Source: a virus. Taken from it: DNA of 64,000 nucleotides. A program made the position numbers and the translations under genes. This document shows, in pieces, positions 30,807 to 62,519 of this stretch. Below the pieces are notes generated by a model. The model was not told the origin of the DNA, did not search any database, and was given only the letters and a program-made list of their open reading frames with translations. The DNA lies in the IMG/VR virus record IMGVR_UViG_3300045988_052780; one strand, given 5' to 3'. Position 1 is the first letter of the stretch; each line of letters starts with the position of its first letter.

Positions 30807-30831
30807 AATCTTTAAGTATTAATTAGTAATG

Positions 30832-31573
30832 TGGCGAGAAGGTGACTCGAACACCCAACCTTGCGATTATTTCTTTGGACGTGTGCTCTTAGCATTTAAT
30901 CGTCCGTAATTCTCAGTTAAGCTGTGACAATTTGGACACAGTAACTGTAGATTGTCTTCTGAGTTGTTGGTAGCATCACCATCTATGTGGTGAACATGAA
31001 GTGGAGGTTCTCCTGTAATCGGGTGAATCTTATCCCACCCACAAACTTGGCACTTACGTTCATGCTTATCCATGAGATAGTCCCTAATGTGTTTAGAAAT
31101 GGAACGAGTTCCACACATGCCAGTTTCTTCACCTTCCTTCCATCTTCTAATGTACTCTTTATGTTTGTACTCGGCTTGACATACGTTGTTACAGTACTTA
31201 GTAGTACTGTTATGATTGCTTAATTCTTTACCGCAATTTAAACAGACTCTAGTTACTAACTTCTTGCCCTTGTTAAAGGTTTCGTTAGCATTTATACTTC
31301 TTCGTTTAACTATGCTGATGTTAAGTCTCTTAGCAACCCTTCGTATGTTTGAGCCTGTACAGCCGTACATTCTACCAATCTCCTCATAAGACACTTTGTC
31401 TGTTAATATTAACCTTTCTAAGTTCTCTTTCTCTAAATTCCAGTCCATTTGTATAACTCTTAATTGAATTACAAATGTAATGATTTTAGATAAAGAAACC
31501 TAGGAATTCGATTCTTATTAAGAATTATTAACAGTATGAGTCGCACGCTCTAACCAGTTGAGCTATCTCGCCA
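30832..31573 (-). tRNA. tRNA-Met(CAT) split in the anticodon loop by a 667-nt intervening sequence carrying an HNH endonuclease gene (exon 1 31536..31573, exon 2 30832..30868)
   Basis: 5' half GGCGAGA TA GCTC AACTGGTTA GAGC G TGCGA CTCAT... and 3' half ...AA TCGCA AGGTT GGGTG TTCGAGT CACCT TCTCGCC A. Acceptor (7/7), anticodon stem (5/5) and T-stem pair perfectly once the halves are joined. Confidence 0.6.
30867..31448 (-). CDS. HNH homing endonuclease with N-terminal sigma-70 region-4-like HTH, inside the tRNA-Met intervening sequence
   Basis: HNH motifs CQVCGW...HVHHIDGD...NLQLLCPNCH. Paralog of 44439..45047. Its stop codon TAA abuts the exon-2 anticodon stem. Confidence 0.8.
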   Translation of the reverse strand: MDWNLEKENLERLILTDKVSYEEIGRMYGCTGSNIRRVAKRLNISIVKRRSINANETFNKGKKLVTRVCLNCGKELSNHNSTTKYCNNVCQAEYKHKEYIRRWKEGEETGMCGTRSISKHIRDYLMDKHERKCQVCGWDKIHPITGEPPLHVHHIDGDATNNSEDNLQLLCPNCHSLTENYGRLNAKSTRPKK

Positions 31574-44354: not shown

Positions 44355-44379
44355 ACATTTTTAATTATTAGTTAATAAG

Positions 44380-45197
44380 TACCCCGACTGCGATTCGAAC
44401 GCAGATATGTGGCTTAGTATAAGAACTAGGAGTCGAACCTAATTCTTATTGTTATTAATTTCATTTTTATGGTAACGGTAATAGGAACGTTCTCCACACT
44501 TGTTCTTAGACTTATAAGTATCAAGCTGTGAATCACAGTTAGGACATATGCATCGTAAATTATCTCTACGATTGTTAGATGCATGTCCGTCTATATGGTC
44601 AATGATAAAGACCAGCTCTTTACCATTCCAGATAGGCTTCATACCACATATAGCACATACTCCACCTTGCTCTTTTAGAATATCTTTCTTGAAGGCCTTA
44701 GGAGAGTAGTTAGCTCTCATTATACTTTCATCACCGTCCAAAAGCTTCTTGTAAGCAAGCATATGAGCATGTTCAAATTGACATTTAGGACCACAGTACT
44801 TGCCATAACTTCCGTTATAACTAATAAGTTCTGCACCACAGTTTAAACAGTATTTGTACTTCCTATTGAATGTTTCTTTAGGATTAATTTTACGTTTAAT
44901 TGGTAACTCTATGCCAAGTCTACGCGCTACATTCTTAATATTAGCACCTGAACAACCATATCTTCTTCCTATTTCCTCATAACTGAGCTTATCTATCAAA
45001 ATTAAATGCTCAAGTTGAGCTTTCTCGTTAATCCATTTACTTGTCATATTCGTCTAAATTAGAAATTCGTACCTCAAAGATACGAATCTTTTACGAATTA
45101 AACAAGTAAATGGATGTTTTGTTGAAATTAATAACAGTGAGTTACGGACTCACCAGCCGTATGAAGGCCACTGTTCTATCCCTTGAACTATCGAGGC
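44380..45197 (-). tRNA. tRNA split in the anticodon loop by a ~746-nt intervening sequence carrying an HNH endonuclease gene. The anticodon is TCT (Arg) or TCA (UGA-reading) depending on the exact junction (exon 1 45162..45197, exon 2 44380..44415).
   Basis: 5' half GCCTCGA TA GTTC AAGGGATA GAAC A GTGGC CTTCA... and 3' half ...AA GCCAC ATAT CTGCG TTCGAAT CGCAG TCGGGGT A. The anticodon stem GTGGC/GCCAC is perfect and the acceptor pairs 7/7 with two G:U. Confidence 0.55.
44439..45047 (-). CDS. HNH homing endonuclease with N-terminal HTH, paralog of 30867..31448, inside a tRNA intervening sequence
   Basis: CAICGM...IDHIDGH...NLRCICPNCD HNH motifs. The N-terminal 60 aa are about 60% identical to the other HNH. 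Confidence 0.8.
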   Translation of the reverse strand: MTSKWINEKAQLEHLILIDKLSYEEIGRRYGCSGANIKNVARRLGIELPIKRKINPKETFNRKYKYCLNCGAELISYNGSYGKYCGPKCQFEHAHMLAYKKLLDGDESIMRANYSPKAFKKDILKEQGGVCAICGMKPIWNGKELVFIIDHIDGHASNNRRDNLRCICPNCDSQLDTYKSKNKCGERSYYRYHKNEINNNKN

Positions 45198-47099: not shown

Positions 47100-47357
47100 G
47101 ATTATCCATGCGGAATTATCATGCCCGTGGGAGTCATTACATAAGTCTTAGAGACTTGAATGAAATACCACTTAACTGCTTTCTTAATTAACTTAAATAG
47201 TTTCATAATAACTCAGTTTTAGTCAGTAAATTAATAATCTAAAGAAACCACTCTATCTTCACAGACCGAGTGGTCGAATACAATTATTTGTACTTCAAGT
47301 TGCTTAATTAAAACATTTCCAGTGACTCCAGAGGGACTTGAACCCTCGACCCACGGA

Positions 47358-47795
47358 TTAACAGAATATTTTAGATATTCTATCTTCAGAGATAACATAA
47401 TCTTTGGTGAAATTTATTCCTTTAACTTGTCCATTCTTGGATGTTTCAGTCCTAAGAGTAATTGTACGTCTATCAACCAACTCAGACATAGGGAATAAAT
47501 AAATTGTATCTAAATCACAACATATAACTACATCCACTTCATCAATGGTGTATTTATGAGTTTCTTTGTTACTCCAGTTATTTGTCACTAAACTAAAACA
47601 AAGAGAGTTATTCTCTGTCTTAGTATCAGTGGTTTTAACTTGACACTTAAAGAATTTGTTGTTGTGGAAGACAACGAAATCAAAAGGGAGATTGTCAGAC
47701 ATAGGTAATAATACATCAATACCATACTTAGCTAACTCTCCGATTGCTACACGCTCTCCCATTTCACCTAATTGTTTGTTATTTCTAACTTCCAT
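47358..47795 (-). CDS. YraN/I-Ssp6803I-like PD-(D/E)XK homing endonuclease
   Basis: GE.GERVAIGELAKYGIDVLLP...DFVVFHNNKFFKCQVKTT matches the UPF0102/I-Ssp6803I core. The start ATG is 1 nt after tRNA-Lys, and the last codons TGT TAA lie inside the CTGTTAA anticodon loop of the split tRNA. Confidence 0.6.
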   Translation of the reverse strand: MEVRNNKQLGEMGERVAIGELAKYGIDVLLPMSDNLPFDFVVFHNNKFFKCQVKTTDTKTENNSLCFSLVTNNWSNKETHKYTIDEVDVVICCDLDTIYLFPMSELVDRRTITLRTETSKNGQVKGINFTKDYVISEDRISKIFC

Positions 47796-47796
47796 G

Positions 47797-47868
47797 TCAC
47801 TCCGCAGGGACTTGAACCCTGTTCTATAGATTAAAAGTCTATAGCATATCCATACATGCTCCGGAGTG
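47797..47868 (-). tRNA. tRNA-Lys(TTT)
   Basis: Fully canonical: CACTCCG GA GCAT GTATGGAT ATGC T ATAGA CTTTTAA TCTAT AGAA CAGGG TTCAAGT CCCTG CGGAGTG A. Confidence 0.85.
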
Positions 47869-48007
47869 AGACATCCGTTAATCCGTTGCTCTAAGCCAGC
47901 TGAGCTATGGAGTCATCCTACAGAAGACAGAATTAAATCACACGAATAAATTGGCGGTTGCCAAGTCATGAAGTGCTGACGTCTTCTTATATTTCACTAA
48001 ATCGAAG

Positions 48008-48081
48008 AGTGGGCGCTCGGATTCGAACCGAGGAATACAGATTTTGCAGACCTGCCTATTAAGCCACTCTAGCACGCCCAC
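48008..48081 (-). tRNA. tRNA-Cys(GCA)
   Basis: Perfect acceptor GTGGGCG/CGCCCAC, anticodon stem CAGGT/ATCTG with loop CTGCAAA, T-arm CTCGG TTCGAAT CCGAG, discriminator U as in bacterial tRNA-Cys. Confidence 0.75.
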
Positions 48082-48179
48082 ATGTCAATGGACTAATGTG
48101 AGGCGAAAGTGAAACGGTTTAATCATTAAGGTTTTAATGATTGGATCTAGTGAAACTAAACAAACATACAAATAAATCG

Positions 48180-49040
48180 TCTGGGTAGTGTGGCTCGAAC
48201 ACACGACATCTAGGTCTAGGAACTAATGCTTTAGAGATTTATCCAATCATTAGAGTTAATAGATTTAATATCTGACGTTTTGGTTGGAAGGTTGTAGCTC
48301 TTACACCACTTTCTAACAGCGTTATCTGAGACTCCAAAGTCCTTTCCAATTTGAGTAAATGGTTTAAATCTAATTAATTCTTTTAGTTGCTCTCTTGTAG
48401 GTCTCTCGACCTTCTGTGCATTCTTAGTAGCACACTCTACACATATACCATTAGCCTTAGAGACTTTGTTAGTGTTACACTGAGAACAGATATAAACTTT
48501 AGGTAAAGGCTCAGATTCCTCTGAACTCCTAACAAAAGAATTAGATACTTTATGTCCTAGCATGTTCTCTAACAGGTAATCCTCTGCTTTGTTATAAGCA
48601 CCACTGTTGTTAGCAGGTGGTTTGAGTCTTAATGTCTTGTCAGTTGAACACTCACTTACTGGAACAAGGTAAACCTTGTTATCGTAACAGGTTGCAAAGT
48701 AATCTATCTGCTCATCATCGTATCTCCTACGAATTGTCTCTTTGGTGTTGGTAGTCTGTGTGACTGTACTAAAATGAAATGCATCTAAATCTCGTACACC
48801 ATTCCTAATAGGATTACTAGACGACTTGCACTGAACTTTAAGGAGTTCATCGCCAGTATCTACTATCATGTCATATCTGGCACAATCACCATAAGGAATT
48901 GAGCAATCAAATCCCATTGACATGAATCCCATAAGGCAGGTTAGTTCTGTAATGTTACCTTTAGATTTTGTATAATCCATATGTTATACTCTAAAGTTTA
49001 GTTCCCAAACCTAGCATTCTACCTACTGAATTATACCCAG
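48180..49040 (-). tRNA. tRNA-Pro(TGG) split at the 3' side of the anticodon loop by a ~790-nt intervening sequence carrying a YraN-like endonuclease gene (exon 1 ~49003..49040, exon 2 48180..48216)
   Basis: 5' half CTGGGTA TA ATTC AGTAGGTA GAAT G CTAGG TTTGGGA and 3' half (GA) CCTAG ATGTC GTGTG TTCGAGC CACAC TACCCAG A. All stems are perfect. The intervening sequence ends with CCTAGA, duplicating the start of exon 2. Confidence 0.6.
48231..48980 (-). CDS. YraN/I-Ssp6803I-like PD-(D/E)XK homing endonuclease with C-terminal zinc-ribbon and HTH DNA-binding extension
   Basis: The N-terminus ITELTCLMGFMSMGFDCSIP...DMIVDTGDELLKVQCKSS is paralogous to 47358..47795. C-terminal CSQCN...CVEC and a DFGVSDNAVRKW HTH. 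Confidence 0.6.
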   Translation of the reverse strand: MDYTKSKGNITELTCLMGFMSMGFDCSIPYGDCARYDMIVDTGDELLKVQCKSSSNPIRNGVRDLDAFHFSTVTQTTNTKETIRRRYDDEQIDYFATCYDNKVYLVPVSECSTDKTLRLKPPANNSGAYNKAEDYLLENMLGHKVSNSFVRSSEESEPLPKVYICSQCNTNKVSKANGICVECATKNAQKVERPTREQLKELIRFKPFTQIGKDFGVSDNAVRKWCKSYNLPTKTSDIKSINSNDWINL

Positions 49041-49110
49041 AGTGCGGAAGTCTAAATATGCTTGACATGGGTTATGCTGTAAGACTTCCTATCAATTCGA
49101 AATCAAGACG

Positions 49111-49184
49111 TGGGCAAGATAGGACTTGAACCTATGACCCCTACCTTATCAGAGTAGTGCTCTAACCAACTGAGCTACTTGCCC
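49111..49184 (-). tRNA. tRNA-Ile(GAT)
   Basis: GGGCAAG TA GCTC AGTTGGTTA GAGC A CTACT CTGATAA GGTAG, T-arm ATAGG TTCAAGT CCTAT. Confidence 0.85.
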
Positions 49185-49272
49185 ATCCACAGAAGACGCT
49201 ACCAATACTAATCATGTAAGAGGCGTGTGCTGTACGTCTTCTTAAATAAAATAATCATTTATGGATTATATG

Positions 49273-49289
49273 GTTGCGGAGATGGGAGT
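49273..49289. repeat. 17-bp direct repeat ttgcggagatgggagtt. It duplicates the 3' end of tRNA-Met (50000..50016) and flanks the GIY-YIG gene on its far side.
   Basis: 16/17 identity with 50000..50016. It is followed by the hairpin GATGGGA(N14)TCCCATC. Confidence 0.7.
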
Positions 49290-49936
49290 TATTGTGCATA
49301 TTCCCATCTATATCCGTATGCTGTCTTAGTCTTGTGCTTAGCTGCATTAGAGATATGGCTTCTAACACCTCCGTTATATGTCTTAGCATAACCGTTATCA
49401 ACACACCAATGTGCTGCATCAGCTACGCTATCAAACACTTGCACAAGCATATCTTCGTTGTACTGTTCTATCTTTACTGGAGGTTTACAGGAGCCACAAC
49501 GTGACTTGCTATTATTGTGAGACCTCTTAATGTCCTTCACTACTTTAGACACTGTGTCTGGATGACATCCTACTATTTTAGCAGTATCTTTCATCGAATG
49601 TCCAGCAGCGTAAAGCTCACGAATTTCATCATAGTTCCAAATAATAGAACCATCTCCACCGGTAGTGGCATTATAACCATTACCATAGGTTTTAAATTCA
49701 TTTATCCAGTAAGTTTCTCTTCCGCTAGATTCCTTTGACGAGCACTCTTCTAGCATTTCTATGCTAAATGAATCAATTCCATATTTATTCATGGCTCTAT
49801 ACAAAGGTCTATCTTTGCATCTCTCCTTCTTATAATCTCTACAGTGTTCTTTCCATCTCTTACTAACGGACGAAGTAGTTTTACCTATATACTTCTTTCC
49901 ATTTACATGGTTAGTTATGCAGTAAATATAAGACAT
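49289..49936 (-). CDS. GIY-YIG homing endonuclease (I-TevI/Seg-like) with C-terminal DNA-binding region
   Basis: N-terminal YIYCITNHVNGKKYIGKT...RWKEH is the GIY-YIG signature. The C-terminal half has NUMOD/HTH-like segments. Confidence 0.8.
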   Translation of the reverse strand: MSYIYCITNHVNGKKYIGKTTSSVSKRWKEHCRDYKKERCKDRPLYRAMNKYGIDSFSIEMLEECSSKESSGRETYWINEFKTYGNGYNATTGGDGSIIWNYDEIRELYAAGHSMKDTAKIVGCHPDTVSKVVKDIKRSHNNSKSRCGSCKPPVKIEQYNEDMLVQVFDSVADAAHWCVDNGYAKTYNGGVRSHISNAAKHKTKTAYGYRWEYAQ

Positions 49937-50078: not shown

Positions 50079-50081
50079 AAG

Positions 50082-50153
50082 TGCTCCATACAGGATTCAA
50101 ACCTGTGACACGTAGGTTTAGGGTCTACTGTTCTATCGCTGAACTAATGGAGC
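50082..50153 (-). tRNA. tRNA with CUA anticodon (candidate amber-suppressor / TAG-decoding tRNA); loop is atypical (C33)
   Basis: Perfect acceptor GCTCCAT/ATGGAGC, D-arm GTTC AGCGATA GAAC, anticodon stem GTAG(A)/(C)CTAC with loop CCCTAAA, T-arm ACAGG TTTGAAT CCTGT. Confidence 0.5.
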
Positions 50154-52130: not shown

Positions 52131-52200
52131 TCAGCTAGGTGGGATTCGAACCCACACCACTTACATAATTTGTAAGTCTTCTAACTTAAATTACTAGCCT
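52131..52200 (-). ncRNA. tRNA-like element (canonical T-arm GTGGG TTCGAAT CCCAC plus 6-bp acceptor) with a non-cloverleaf body; candidate Y-RNA-like tRNA mimic or degenerate tRNA
   Basis: Minus strand is AGGCTAG TAATTTAAGTTAGAAGACTTACAAATTATGTAAGTGGTGT GGG-TTCGAAT-CCCAC CTAGCTG A. The body forms a 7-bp hairpin ACTTACA/TGTAAGT with a 5-nt loop instead of D and anticodon arms. It lies about 105 nt downstream of the vWA/Ro-like gene on the same strand. Confidence 0.4.
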
Positions 52201-52308: not shown

Positions 52309-54027
52309 CTAGCCTTGTTGAGTGGACACAGTGCGCTTATTATAAATTGGCTTCTCAGCCTTTGCAGGCTTACTCTGCACGCTTGCATTCTTTCTCGGTG
52401 TGTCCTTCTCTAACACCATCATATTCAAGAGTTCTTGATTCATCATGTAATCGAACAACTCTTTAGGCGTACTAGGATTCTGGAATCTCTTCTCTCCGGT
52501 TATAAATCCAGCAGTGGACTGACTTAATCCGTTAACAAAGAAACAGTTAGAAACATTGCGAATCAATTCAACTTTAGGCTTAGTCTGTTTAGAGGCTAAA
52601 TGCCAAATAATTAATTTAAACTGTTTAACAAACTCTTTGCTAAATCCAGCTTTTAAGAGTTTAGATTTAAATTCAATGAATTGTTCACTGGTGTTTCTTA
52701 AATGTCCCAATGCTCCGCTAATTACCAAACAGCCATTTGGAAATTCACCTTCCCGAATTCCTCCAGATTTAATAGATATAAGCATATCTGCAATCATAGA
52801 CAGAGTTGGACTAGTTACTAAGGCTTCCTCAGTATCTGAAATCCACTTACTAGTAGGAGTTGTACCTTCCCACTTACGTAAATCACATCTATTGTTGGCA
52901 AATACACCATACATGCCAGAGAACGCTACAGGCATTAATTCGGAATGATACATAGCATAAGCCTTACCAACACTATAAGCAGAAGTTTCAGTAGCTTCTA
53001 TCTCAGAATAAGCAGAATTACTAATGTCTCTAATTACTAATAGTGGTGATACTTTCTTTAGCTTAGCATTCTTCACGAATGTATTAAAACTAACATCTAT
53101 AGAAGAACCCATGAATTCTGGTACGAACTCTGCAATTTTATCAAGTCCAAATGGCTTAAATAAATTATGCACAAATCCGTCATTACAGGGCTTTCTACGA
53201 GTCTTCAGCCATTTCTGATACTTCTCTGCAAGACCTTGTTGTTTGAGGAATTTAGAGCCTACTAGCAGTGCTAGAGCCTTTCCTGGAACTGTATCAAAGT
53301 CAATGTCGAGTAATTTCTTATGGCTTATTAATTGCTGCCATTTCATAACTGTACCGCTGTTCTTCATCTTTCTATACTTACGATAAGATGAATAGTCTCC
53401 TTCCTCTTTCGGTTTACCATAAAGGCCTTCAGCTAGATATTTAGCAACTATGTTACGGGCTTTCGCCTCGTCTGTCTTACATATAGTATTAGCTCGAACT
53501 CTAGGAAGATACTTCTTTACTAAGTCACATGTTTGCCCTTCTACTAAACCAGCATAAATAGTCTTTCTAAAGAAATCCCAATCTAGTCTATGCTTGTATC
53601 CATGTAATTGAGCATCCATTACTAACATATTAATAAAGTCCTTCCAGCATCCTGCTGCCGCAAAGTAAGGCATATTGGCATGGAATGTAGATTTATGATA
53701 TGTTGCCAACCACATCATTCTTAATAAACCTTCATTCTTTAGACCACCTCCTCGCTGTGTGTCTAAGTAAATAACTCCATTAGGAGTAACTACTCTACAT
53801 TTACGTGTAATAAGTCTTACACAGGCAGTAAATTTGACACACAGCTTTGGATTGGCCTTCCACAGTTCATACATATCTTGACTAACGTCTTCATAAGAAC
53901 GTGGTTCAAGATAGTGCGCAAGGTTTACGAATTGGTCCACAAATACTTTAGTAGGATTTGTATACCTTCGTCCCCCACCTTGAGAGGGCTTAGAGCAAGC
54001 CTTTTTAGGCCTTTCATTCATTTCCAT
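52309..54027 (-). CDS. large vWA-domain protein. Tentatively Ro60/TROVE-like (Rsr), but not verified and could be another vWA-containing RNA or DNA processing protein.
   Basis: 572 aa with a MIDAS DxSxS motif (VIRDISNSAYS) about two-thirds along, as in Ro60 domain order (TROVE then vWA). A tRNA-like RNA lies immediately downstream. Confidence 0.35.
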   Translation of the reverse strand: MEMNERPKKACSKPSQGGGRRYTNPTKVFVDQFVNLAHYLEPRSYEDVSQDMYELWKANPKLCVKFTACVRLITRKCRVVTPNGVIYLDTQRGGGLKNEGLLRMMWLATYHKSTFHANMPYFAAAGCWKDFINMLVMDAQLHGYKHRLDWDFFRKTIYAGLVEGQTCDLVKKYLPRVRANTICKTDEAKARNIVAKYLAEGLYGKPKEEGDYSSYRKYRKMKNSGTVMKWQQLISHKKLLDIDFDTVPGKALALLVGSKFLKQQGLAEKYQKWLKTRRKPCNDGFVHNLFKPFGLDKIAEFVPEFMGSSIDVSFNTFVKNAKLKKVSPLLVIRDISNSAYSEIEATETSAYSVGKAYAMYHSELMPVAFSGMYGVFANNRCDLRKWEGTTPTSKWISDTEEALVTSPTLSMIADMLISIKSGGIREGEFPNGCLVISGALGHLRNTSEQFIEFKSKLLKAGFSKEFVKQFKLIIWHLASKQTKPKVELIRNVSNCFFVNGLSQSTAGFITGEKRFQNPSTPKELFDYMMNQELLNMMVLEKDTPRKNASVQSKPAKAEKPIYNKRTVSTQQG

Positions 54028-54388
54028 CTTGTAAAATTAAATTGGCAGGTTAATCTGAGAGTTCTTTATTCTAATTGATAAAATGGGACACATAGACATC
54101 GAGCCAGCTTAATACAACTCGCTACTTACACACTACATGCCCCATATCAAATGAGGAAAGAGGTTCACTTGATGACCTATCTACGTGCTGATTATAACGT
54201 AGACCGTGCAGATTCTCTCTTACACAATACTATGATGGACTCAAACCATCTCCACCCCTAGGTGAACTTTCCGTTATTCGAATAGTACAGGTTTCAACTC
54301 TTTATAACGCCTTTAAGTCAAAGTATACTCCGGAATATACTCTTAGTTCATCAGACCAAGTTTGCGCTTAGAATTATCTAAGATTAAG

Positions 54389-62439: not shown

Positions 62440-62519
62440 TTATTAATCAGACTCCTGCATATAGCAGAAGTTTCGTCCAGTCTCATCAGTGATTATTTTA
62501 TAGACTCCTGGTTGTCTTA

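Follow-up and report, generated by a model that had tools for sequence, protein, structure and literature searches.

Can a transfer RNA (tRNA) gene that is interrupted directly beside its anticodon by a homing endonuclease gene still yield a tRNA, and if so, by what route? This question is raised by a stretch of viral DNA of 64,000 nucleotides (nt), IMG/VR record IMGVR_UViG_3300045988_052780, hereafter the window, to which all coordinates refer. Its minus strand carries a phage-type tRNA array, in which 23 genes were detected by ARAGORN in default mode and one more by Rfam. When intron detection was used, ARAGORN also reported a tRNA-Pro(tgg) at c[48179,49040] with an intron of 788 nt, which had gone unreported in the default ARAGORN and Rfam scans of the window. 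On the evidence of sequence comparison, the region is a mobile, ribozyme-free intervening sequence located directly 3' of the anticodon, in which an RNA helix between exon and intron is maintained and re-tuned to the anticodon of each host tRNA.

Joined in silico, the two exons form a canonical 73-nt tRNA, and default ARAGORN calls it tRNA-Pro(tgg). An exact search with the joined anticodon arm retrieved four viral contigs (L001-L004) in which tRNA-Pro(TGG) is uninterrupted at the same place, within arrays syntenic with that of the window (suppressor(CUA), Ile, Pro, Cys, Lys, Asn, Trp, Ser, Arg, Ala, His, Phe). The joined exons are identical to the L002 gene at 72 of 73 positions, exon 1 being fully identical, and the flank downstream of tRNA-Pro matches L002 at 292 of 302 positions. 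Since a syntenic uninterrupted allele is 72/73 identical, the split gene does not represent a chance juxtaposition. The gene comprises the following parts, L005 being a viral contig that also carries the insert:

49005..49040, minus strand: exon 1 of tRNA-Pro(UGG), nt 1-36 (acceptor 5' strand, D arm, anticodon stem 5' strand and loop U32-G36 including the anticodon UGG); from ARAGORN -i, with the same sequence in the L002 allele.

48217..49004, minus strand: intervening sequence of 788 nt, placed at 36/37; from presence/absence relative to L001-L004 and the L005 copy, with the placement taken from the family comparison.

48180..48216, minus strand: exon 2 of tRNA-Pro, nt 37-73 (G37, A38, anticodon stem 3' strand, variable loop, T arm, acceptor 3' strand and discriminator A); from ARAGORN.

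An earlier note on this DNA, made from the letters alone, had proposed that a tRNA-Pro(UGG) is split here by a homing-endonuclease cassette filling almost the whole insert, and that the halves make a proper 73-nt tRNA. Both proposals are borne out: the sequence it gave for the halves was found where it had placed them, and the ARAGORN intron call and the intact allele agree with it. It was also right that this is the sole tRNA-Pro of the window, as no other was found within it by default ARAGORN, ARAGORN with introns or Rfam. Two candidates for a second tRNA-Pro were rejected. The first, at 52131-52200 (minus strand), is a tRNA-like match of 40.6 bits seen by Rfam only, with an unusual loop (AAATTAT) lacking U33. 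The second, at approximately 54215-54285, has an L002 homolog called Pro(agg) by ARAGORN, and the window copy is devoid of an anticodon arm.

The dinucleotide GA is present at both borders of the insert, so the junction can be drawn at 36/37, 37/38 or 38/39. The earlier note had set it at the 3' edge of the loop (38/39), which is one of these three equivalent placements in the window but is not compatible with the relatives. Many of these have a pyrimidine after position 36, unfit as tRNA position 37, which excludes the other placements; the ambiguity of the window allows 36/37, and the insertion site was therefore set there. When 25 cases were joined at 36/37, default ARAGORN accepted 24 of the resulting tRNAs (Pro, Thr UGU, Thr AGU, Arg UCU, Val UAC and Ser GCU).

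The insert is largely occupied by a single open reading frame (ORF):

48231..48980, minus strand: homing endonuclease ORF of 249 residues; a PD-(D/E)XK nuclease domain of the I-Ssp6803I family occupies the N-terminal part, and a zinc ribbon with four cysteines and a helix-turn-helix make up the C-terminal part; from Pfam, PHROG and PDB.

Residues 4-135 match Pfam PF11645 (PDDEXK_5) with an E value of 6e-20 and 72 bits against a cut-off of 26.1, and this was the only significant family in the Pfam scan of the ORF. PHROG 5018 matches as well, and the sole solved relative is I-Ssp6803I itself (PDB 2OST; E 8e-7, or 2e-11 with a profile). A total of 419 homologs were found, and in a comparison of 26 of them D36, Q49, K51 and the four cysteines were invariant. 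The C-terminal 90 residues, containing the four invariant cysteines and the helix-turn-helix, form a module that also ends phage HNH endonucleases. By these matches, the predicted protein belongs to the I-Ssp6803I-type PD-(D/E)XK homing endonucleases (PF11645), in line with the 249-residue I-Ssp6803I-like ORF of the earlier note. Its description of the protein as YraN-like holds at the superfamily level only, with no YraN/UPF0102 match in Pfam at E<=1, and its 35-nt 5' leader has to be corrected to 22-24 nt. The non-coding part of the insert amounts to 38 nt, consisting of a 5' leader of 24 nt and a 3' trailer of 14 nt. No promoter-like site was found within the insert, so the ORF would depend on the tRNA transcript. 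The predicted homing site of the enzyme is the intron-less L002-type sequence CTAGGTTTGGGACCTAG, a candidate target.

The distribution of the insert indicates how it may have reached this gene. Besides the window, two viral contigs carry it, L005 with 786 of 788 positions identical (99.7%) and L006 with 777 of 788. Their host tRNA-Pro genes differ from that of the window in the acceptor stem, T arm and variable loop (exon 2 is identical at 28 of 37 positions), and the DNA around the insert is only ~50-55% identical to that of the window. Presence and absence were thus observed at one exact site, with the insert in the window, L005 and L006 and none in L001-L004. A near-identical element in diverged genes, together with empty sites in close relatives, is a signature of homing, and the insert is evidently mobile, spreading by homing into uninterrupted tRNA-Pro alleles. 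More distant protein homologs (76%, 58% and 46-50% identity) occupy the same site of tRNA-Pro(TGG) genes, and free-standing homologs lie directly before or after an intact tRNA-Pro(TGG) in other genomes (L031, L033, L034, L039). A PF11645 relative is also located between tRNA genes in Pectobacterium phage My1. A DNA search among deposited phages returned matches to tRNA-Ile only and no close relative. A transposon with terminal inverted repeats and target duplication was considered and rejected, as the empty-site comparison revealed a clean 788-nt insertion, with no target-site duplication and only the 2-nt GA ambiguity.

As a separate observation, a direct repeat of 11-14 base pairs (bp) (CAGTAGATAGTTCT-like) flanks cassettes of the endonuclease gene, with or without an adjacent tRNA-Pro, in L033, L034 and L039. 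The repeat hints that the same endonuclease family also inserts at a second site, between genes.

A group I ribozyme was considered as the possible agent of removal; the earlier note had proposed ribozyme model scans. An Rfam scan of 47900-49300 at E<=10 detected the neighbouring tRNAs only, with no ribozyme in the insert and no RF00028 (Intron_gpI). The same kind of scan found no ribozyme in the HNH inserts of the window's tRNA-Arg and tRNA-Met, and 29 related loci (20 + 9) gave tRNA-type Rfam matches only, with no group I core. As a positive control, RF00028 was recovered in the window's nrdD (45.2 bits, E 7e-10), where the group I core adjoins, on the upstream side, the HNH ORF that interrupts nrdD. 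Introns of the family with a short endonuclease (~135-150 residues) total 450-520 nt, and ~400-440 nt of this is ORF. Third-codon-position entropy is flat along the nuclease coding region (0.83-1.03 bits, 33 homologs), which argues against a conserved RNA hidden in the ORF. In group I introns the 5' exon ends in U (forming the U.G pair in P1), the intron ends in G, the core spans P3-P9 with the G-binding site, and some 200 nt or more of structured RNA lie outside the ORF or overlap it. The junction bases here (5' exon end/intron end) are G/A at 36/37, G/G at 37/38 and A/A at 38/39, none of them U...G, and the 5' exon end pairs with the 3' end of the intron and not with a 5' internal guide sequence. 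A group I intron was therefore rejected, given the missing covariance-model core despite the positive control, the wrong junction bases, the 38 non-coding nt and the flat synonymous profile. A cryptic variant, self-splicing with its core overlapping the endonuclease ORF as in the Synechocystis tRNA-fMet intron, appears hardly credible. Some phage introns do have ORFs that overlap their group I cores. The one characterised case (PMC1995217) also shares the endonuclease family and the target region (the tRNA anticodon loop). Such an intron would nevertheless have to lack any Intron_gpI match at E<=10 in the insert and 29 related loci, although the same method found the nrdD core. It would also have to fit into 38 non-coding nt with no placement offering a 5' exon U and an intron G, to pair its 5' exon with its own 3' end as the conserved interaction, and to show no suppression of synonymous changes.

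What the insert contains instead of a ribozyme is a predicted helix that unites both of its ends with the anticodon loop. Folding of the complete 862-nt precursor (minimum free energy, MFE, and pairing probabilities) preserves the acceptor, D and T arms and lengthens the anticodon stem to 17 continuous bp (probability ~1). A minimal version of the stem scored z = -8.5 against shuffles. The predicted elements are listed below, with the conservation of the unpaired bases taken from an alignment of 25 related stems:

48998..49014, minus strand: 5' strand of the 17-bp helix, comprising stem 27-31, loop 32-36 and intron +1 to +7 (CUAGG UUUGG GAACUAA); from MFE, probabilities and covariation.

48210..48226, minus strand: 3' strand of the 17-bp helix, comprising intron -10 to -1 (UUAGUUC CUA), G37, A38 and stem 39-43; from MFE, probabilities and covariation.

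48997..48997, minus strand: unpaired A on the 5' side of an internal loop, with conserved (C)AA before it; column A18 is invariant.

48227..48228, minus strand: unpaired CA on the 3' side of the internal loop, with conserved UU(G) after it; columns 39-42 (C, A, T, T) are invariant or >=90% conserved.

48989..48996, minus strand: 5' strand of helix 2 (CUUUAGAG), 8 nt upstream of the ORF start codon; from fold and covariation.

48229..48236, minus strand: 3' strand of helix 2 (CUCUAAAG), holding the ORF stop codon UAA (48231-48233); from fold and covariation.

The long helix falls into three segments: 7 bp belong to the tRNA (27-33 with 37-43), 3 bp join the anticodon to the intron tail, and 7 bp form the intron stem. 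The last three bases of the window intron, CUA, pair with the anticodon UGG, and in the predicted ensemble the loop U32-G37 pairs with A38 and the intronic CCUAG. With placement at 36/37, the two junctions lie on opposite strands of the helix, 3 bp apart, giving a two-fold symmetric 7 + 3 + 7 bp arrangement bounded by the tRNA body at one end and by the internal loop at the other. Beyond this A/CA loop, the 8 bp of helix 2 close off the ORF. A bulge-helix-bulge motif was searched for around the junctions and rejected, the fold being a continuous 17-bp helix without junction bulges. The idea that the RNA helix copies the full DNA homing site was dropped as a general rule, as the 5' end of the intron resembles exon 2 in the window and L017 but not in L020 or others.

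A different role for the intron end had been suggested in the earlier note. It had pointed to a tandem CCTAGA repeat, which is indeed present at 48215-48220 and 48209-48214, and proposed that the intronic copy mimics the anticodon stem. Pairing of the intronic CCUAG with the 5' stem CUAGG is contradicted by folding: the forced structure is 16.7 kcal/mol worse with a probability of ~0, and CUAGG pairs with exon 2 with a probability of ~1.0. Nor does mimicry hold in general. In homologous introns the corresponding pentamer (CCTAG/CCTGG) adjoins unrelated exon-2 stems such as TGCAG (L017) and CCAAG (L020), and the exact repeat is thus best regarded as a coincidence of the anticodon stem of this lineage.

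The helix was compared across a wider family. An endonuclease profile fetched 48 viral loci, and in 31 of them ARAGORN placed the endonuclease gene inside a tRNA, inspection adding more. Contigs from metagenome bins that carry tRNA arrays contributed eight further split tRNAs, as many as three of them in one array. A search for an essential bacterial tRNA interrupted by the PF11645 family gave nine matches, all of them tRNA-array contigs of metagenome bins and probably phage. Three split tRNAs occur within 3.7 kb in L087. The family also includes a cultured member, Enterococcus phage EFP01 (NC_047796), in which the insert lies in tRNA-Asn(GUU) (105242-105777) and which encodes RtcB.

The covariation set consisted of 25 distinct stems in a gap-free alignment, from introns in Pro, Thr, Arg, Val, Ser and Ala tRNAs. 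Paired cells amounted to 93.3%, compared with 64.3% when partners were shuffled and 31-45% when the strands were slid. Two-sided changes were observed in 22 of 25 pairs (covariation score 0.81 versus 0.25), and an independent count was also made. The intron tail matches the anticodon of its host tRNA, with AGA:UCU, GUA:UAC, GCA:UGC, AGC:GCU and CUA or CUG:UGG combinations. In 20 of 21 cases G35 is placed opposite U and not C, a preference that argues against selection for plain helix stability. Single mismatches at 32:38 and +2:-5 were observed in the helices of many relatives, and the junction sequences are not conserved across the family. The helix motif is absent where the same endonuclease family is free-standing beside an intact tRNA-Pro, and it therefore looks like an adaptation to life inside a tRNA. 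Some members (for example L044, L053, L060 and EFP01) keep the helix and are without the internal-loop motif.

Several observations were made in the same arrays. ROOL, RAGATH-33 and drum RNAs lie together with split tRNAs in L083 (2175-2764), L085 (652-1240), L086 (3953-4083) and L087 (1149-1269). ARAGORN also reported tRNAs with A at the wobble position, which is unusual for bacteria, in L041, L043, L076, L081 and L087 (Thr AGU, interrupted and joined in silico; Ser AGA; Ser ACU; Cys ACA).

An inverted repeat of this kind could in principle act in the DNA, as a strand-specific single-stranded hairpin serving mobility, excision or endonuclease binding. The terminal inverted repeats of ~15 nt speak for such a role, as does the 3-nt stagger with which I-Ssp6803I reportedly cuts DNA, equal to that of the junctions in the helix. 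We regard it as very improbable. The helix is rich in G.U pairs, as expected if it forms in the sense-strand transcript and not in duplex DNA. The corresponding G.T pairs, being abundant, would turn into A.C mismatches on the opposite strand, disfavouring a double-stranded cruciform. The insert also has no flanking target-site duplication, and the presence/absence pattern and exon co-conversion fit ordinary double-strand-break homing.

If the helix acts as RNA, it might constitute a new small self-processing RNA. In this case the terminal structure (the CAA-A ... CA-UUG loop with its helices) would cleave both junctions to leave a 2',3'-cyclic phosphate and a 5'-OH, with ligation either by reversal or through RtcB. 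The bases of the internal loop show no or almost no variation between introns that have otherwise diverged, the RtcB encoded by EFP01 is of the type that joins such ends, and a link between tRNA arrays and rtcB has been reported (PMC8421152). The motif is, however, a 1x2 internal loop placed 7-10 nt from the junctions within a regular helix, with neither a tertiary partner nor likeness to an Rfam ribozyme. Together with the unconserved junction sequences and the members that keep the helix without the motif (for instance L044, L053, L060 and EFP01), this makes self-processing an improbable explanation.

The reading that we tentatively prefer, although it falls a little short of being probable, is that of a protein-spliced intron, in which the helix would present the junctions to a nuclease and a ligase would reseal the loop. 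The precursor is predicted to fold as a normal tRNA with an extended anticodon arm. A protein endonuclease would recognise the helix and cut both junctions, and an RNA ligase of the RtcB or Rnl type, from phage or host, would reseal the anticodon loop. The outcome would be a functional tRNA-Pro and a free endonuclease messenger RNA, by a cut-and-rejoin route akin to that of archaeal introns with endonuclease genes. Removal is favoured by the combination of mobility with clean insertion, no ribozyme, a conserved helix, an anticodon-matched tail and joinable exons in 24 of 25 cases, and the tolerance of several inserts per array (three in L087) is consistent with a functional product, as is the presence of both an insert in tRNA-Asn and an RtcB gene in EFP01. 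Removal at the RNA level is thus plausible as a model. The candidate nucleases are speculative and would include the intron's own enzyme, RNase P (each junction marking the 5' terminus of a 7-bp stem that has a 3' tail) or another factor.

The first of these candidates can be formulated more specifically. The intron-encoded PD-(D/E)XK homing endonuclease may itself be the splicing nuclease of a large ribozyme-free intron family, with the helix serving as an RNA copy of its pseudo-symmetric DNA target (7 bp, 3-bp anticodon, 7 bp). Cleavage would take place at junctions staggered by 3 bp with 3' overhangs, and a phage or host RNA ligase would reseal the loop. I-Ssp6803I reportedly cuts DNA on either side of the anticodon, leaving 3-nt 3' overhangs, a geometry that matches the junctions. 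We consider this version unlikely.

Several points weigh against splicing by proteins. No tRNA splicing endonuclease is known from bacteria or phages, nor any EndA homolog from bacteria, and no RNA ligase, RtcB included, was found among the ~40 window ORFs scanned. The RtcB of EFP01 as the natural partner of the insert is a speculative, putative link. Neither an anticodon-pairing helix nor a ribozyme was found in the two HNH inserts that split tRNA-Met and tRNA-Arg within the same array, so the phage may just live with broken tRNA genes. A complete replacement tRNA accompanies some cassettes of the PF11645 family (window 47322-47914; the tRNA-Met loci L064 and L068-70), as expected if the insertion is inactivating. 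Degenerate exons are present in some interrupted genes, with the T arm missing in L023-26 and a T-loop C-to-T change in L055 relative to L057. Even where exons are intact they are a weak sign of function, since the element, if actively homing, keeps entering fresh genes. Among cultured Schiekvirus the insert occurs in 1 of 30 genomes, the 29 sisters having the empty site. The argument of the earlier note, that interruption of the only tRNA-Pro implies functional removal, is likewise weak, because phage tRNAs are accessory and the two HNH inserts of the same array show no splicing-related structure. An 'RNA ligase' label found under a Klebsiella phage match was not used, as the annotation looks misaligned with the sequence.

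Tolerated gene disruption is a serious rival, somewhat doubtful in our estimate but well within reach. It holds that a selfish insertion inactivates an accessory tRNA-Pro whose loss is tolerated, and that the helix serves the endonuclease gene. In one variant, the helix would seat a big insert in the folded tRNA scaffold so that RNase P and 3' processing excise the transcript from a polycistronic precursor, stabilised or translationally controlled; in another, it would be a double-strand processing stem. Such a role would account for an ORF that relies on the tRNA transcript in an insert with no promoter-like site, and for a helix 2 that flanks the start codon and contains the stop codon. It is further favoured by the lack of either a ribozyme or a known bacterial splicing enzyme, by the helix-less HNH inserts, by the rarity in Schiekvirus, by replacement-tRNA cassettes and partial tRNA duplications, by the decayed exons of a few interrupted genes and by the free-standing relatives, which show that the endonuclease needs no intron. 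A scaffold or stability role should nonetheless favour strong pairs, yet G35 stands opposite U in 20 of 21 cases. The spacer-free, base-for-base matching of tail and anticodon is left unexplained, as is the recoverable purine-37 and canonical 7-nt loop in 24 of 25 cases. Three to four dead tRNAs per array (in the window and L087) would be a sizeable cost, and the motif is confined to copies inside tRNAs.

The phage inserts can be compared with three known systems. The intron in tRNA-fMet of Synechocystis PCC 6803, a self-splicing group I ribozyme, measures 655 nt and has an ORF of 150 residues (PMC1995217). It shares with the phage insert the PF11645 family (I-Ssp6803I), a position in the tRNA anticodon loop beside the anticodon, and homing mobility. 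It differs in that no ribozyme core is detectable in the phage insert, which has only 38 non-coding bases and junctions that depart from the U...G rule, and in which a conserved exon-intron helix takes the place of P1/P10. The phage inserts also reside in phage tRNA arrays rather than a cyanobacterial chromosome, and many of them add a zinc ribbon and a helix-turn-helix domain to the nuclease.

In archaea and eukaryotes, tRNA introns are removed by the EndA/Sen endonuclease and an RtcB/Trl1 ligase. The phage inserts resemble these protein-spliced introns in carrying an ORF (as in archaea), in a terminal helix uniting the junctions with the anticodon paired to intron bases, in junctions on opposite strands with a 3' stagger and two-fold symmetry beside the anticodon, and in having no ribozyme. 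Unlike bulge-helix-bulge introns, with their two 3-nt bulges and 4-bp helix, the phage helix is continuous or contains single mismatches. The phage site is 36/37 rather than 37/38, the hosts are bacterial, and the gene carried is of the PD-(D/E)XK type rather than LAGLIDADG. The third system, T4 SegB, is likewise a homing endonuclease located in, and targeting, a phage tRNA cluster (PMC2330249). SegB-type genes lie between genes without interrupting them, whereas the window copy lies inside the anticodon loop and is complementary to it.

According to a 2014 review, every phage intron seen until then lay in a protein-coding gene, although phages have many tRNA genes (PMC3984707), and no description of such ribozyme-less phage tRNA introns turned up in the literature library that was searched. 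One window and ~40 related loci show that phage tRNA genes are recurrently interrupted by a ribozyme-less element of conserved structure. Standard tRNA annotation does not see these elements, so that phage tRNA repertoires, and conclusions based on 'missing' tRNAs, are mis-scored. If they are spliced, bacteria or their viruses would possess protein-dependent tRNA splicing thought to be confined to archaea and eukaryotes, and RtcB-type ligases of phages and tRNA arrays would gain a natural substrate. If the intron-encoded enzyme were the splicing nuclease, it would provide the first case of protein-only tRNA splicing beyond archaea and eukaryotes and a living link between homing endonucleases and tRNA splicing endonucleases, the PD-(D/E)XK fold being common to both. 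If they are not spliced, they show the extent to which homing endonucleases erode phage tRNA arrays, and the anticodon-matched helix still needs explaining. The phenomenon would be categorically new only if protein-dependent splicing were demonstrated, and the tRNA-Asn of EFP01 offers a cultured system where splicing is directly testable.

Other interrupted genes were identified in the window, all on the minus strand. The tRNA-Met(CAT) gene (30831-31572) is split after the anticodon by a 667-nt insert encoding an HNH endonuclease of 193 residues (30867-31448), whose stop codon TAA spans the 3' junction. The tRNA-Arg(TCT) gene (44379-45197) is split at 35/36 by a 746-nt insert with an HNH endonuclease of 202 residues (44439-45047). 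In this insert the leader and trailer pair over 14 bp, and a T-arm-like hairpin comes next, at the 3' end. The anticodon stem of the tRNA-Arg differs from that of the intron-less L002 allele and the rest of the tRNA is identical, which suggests co-conversion. At 47322-47914, the anticodon loop of an L002-type tRNA-Lys is interrupted by a cassette consisting of an L003-type tRNA-Lys(UUU) (47796-47868) and a PF11645 endonuclease of 145 residues (47358-47795). The flanks of the cassette form a 13-bp helix, and the cassette appears to bring its own replacement tRNA. The interrupted nrdD (1-2518) comprises an N-terminal part (1391-2518), the HNH ORF (500-1246) and a C-terminal part that runs off the window end; its group I core (1303-1517), at 45.2 bits, scores just below the gathering score and was missed by the default scan.

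Close to the split tRNA-Pro (~250 nt away), a free-standing GIY-YIG endonuclease with a helix-turn-helix domain (49289-49936, minus strand) lies between tRNA-Ile and the suppressor tRNA. The latter (50081-50153, minus strand), with anticodon CUA, is of the amber-suppressor type, is labelled 'Pyl' by ARAGORN and is kept in related arrays, suggesting TAG recoding in part of the phage genome. At 52309-54381 (minus strand), a RAGATH-34 RNA (54284-54381) is followed by a tRNA-like element (~54215-54285) and a protein of 572 residues matching PHROG 850 'RNA-binding protein', an arrangement that resembles a Ro / Y-RNA (YrlA-like) module. Finally, a RAGATH-1 hammerhead ribozyme was detected at 62445-62518 (minus strand) with 82.6 bits.

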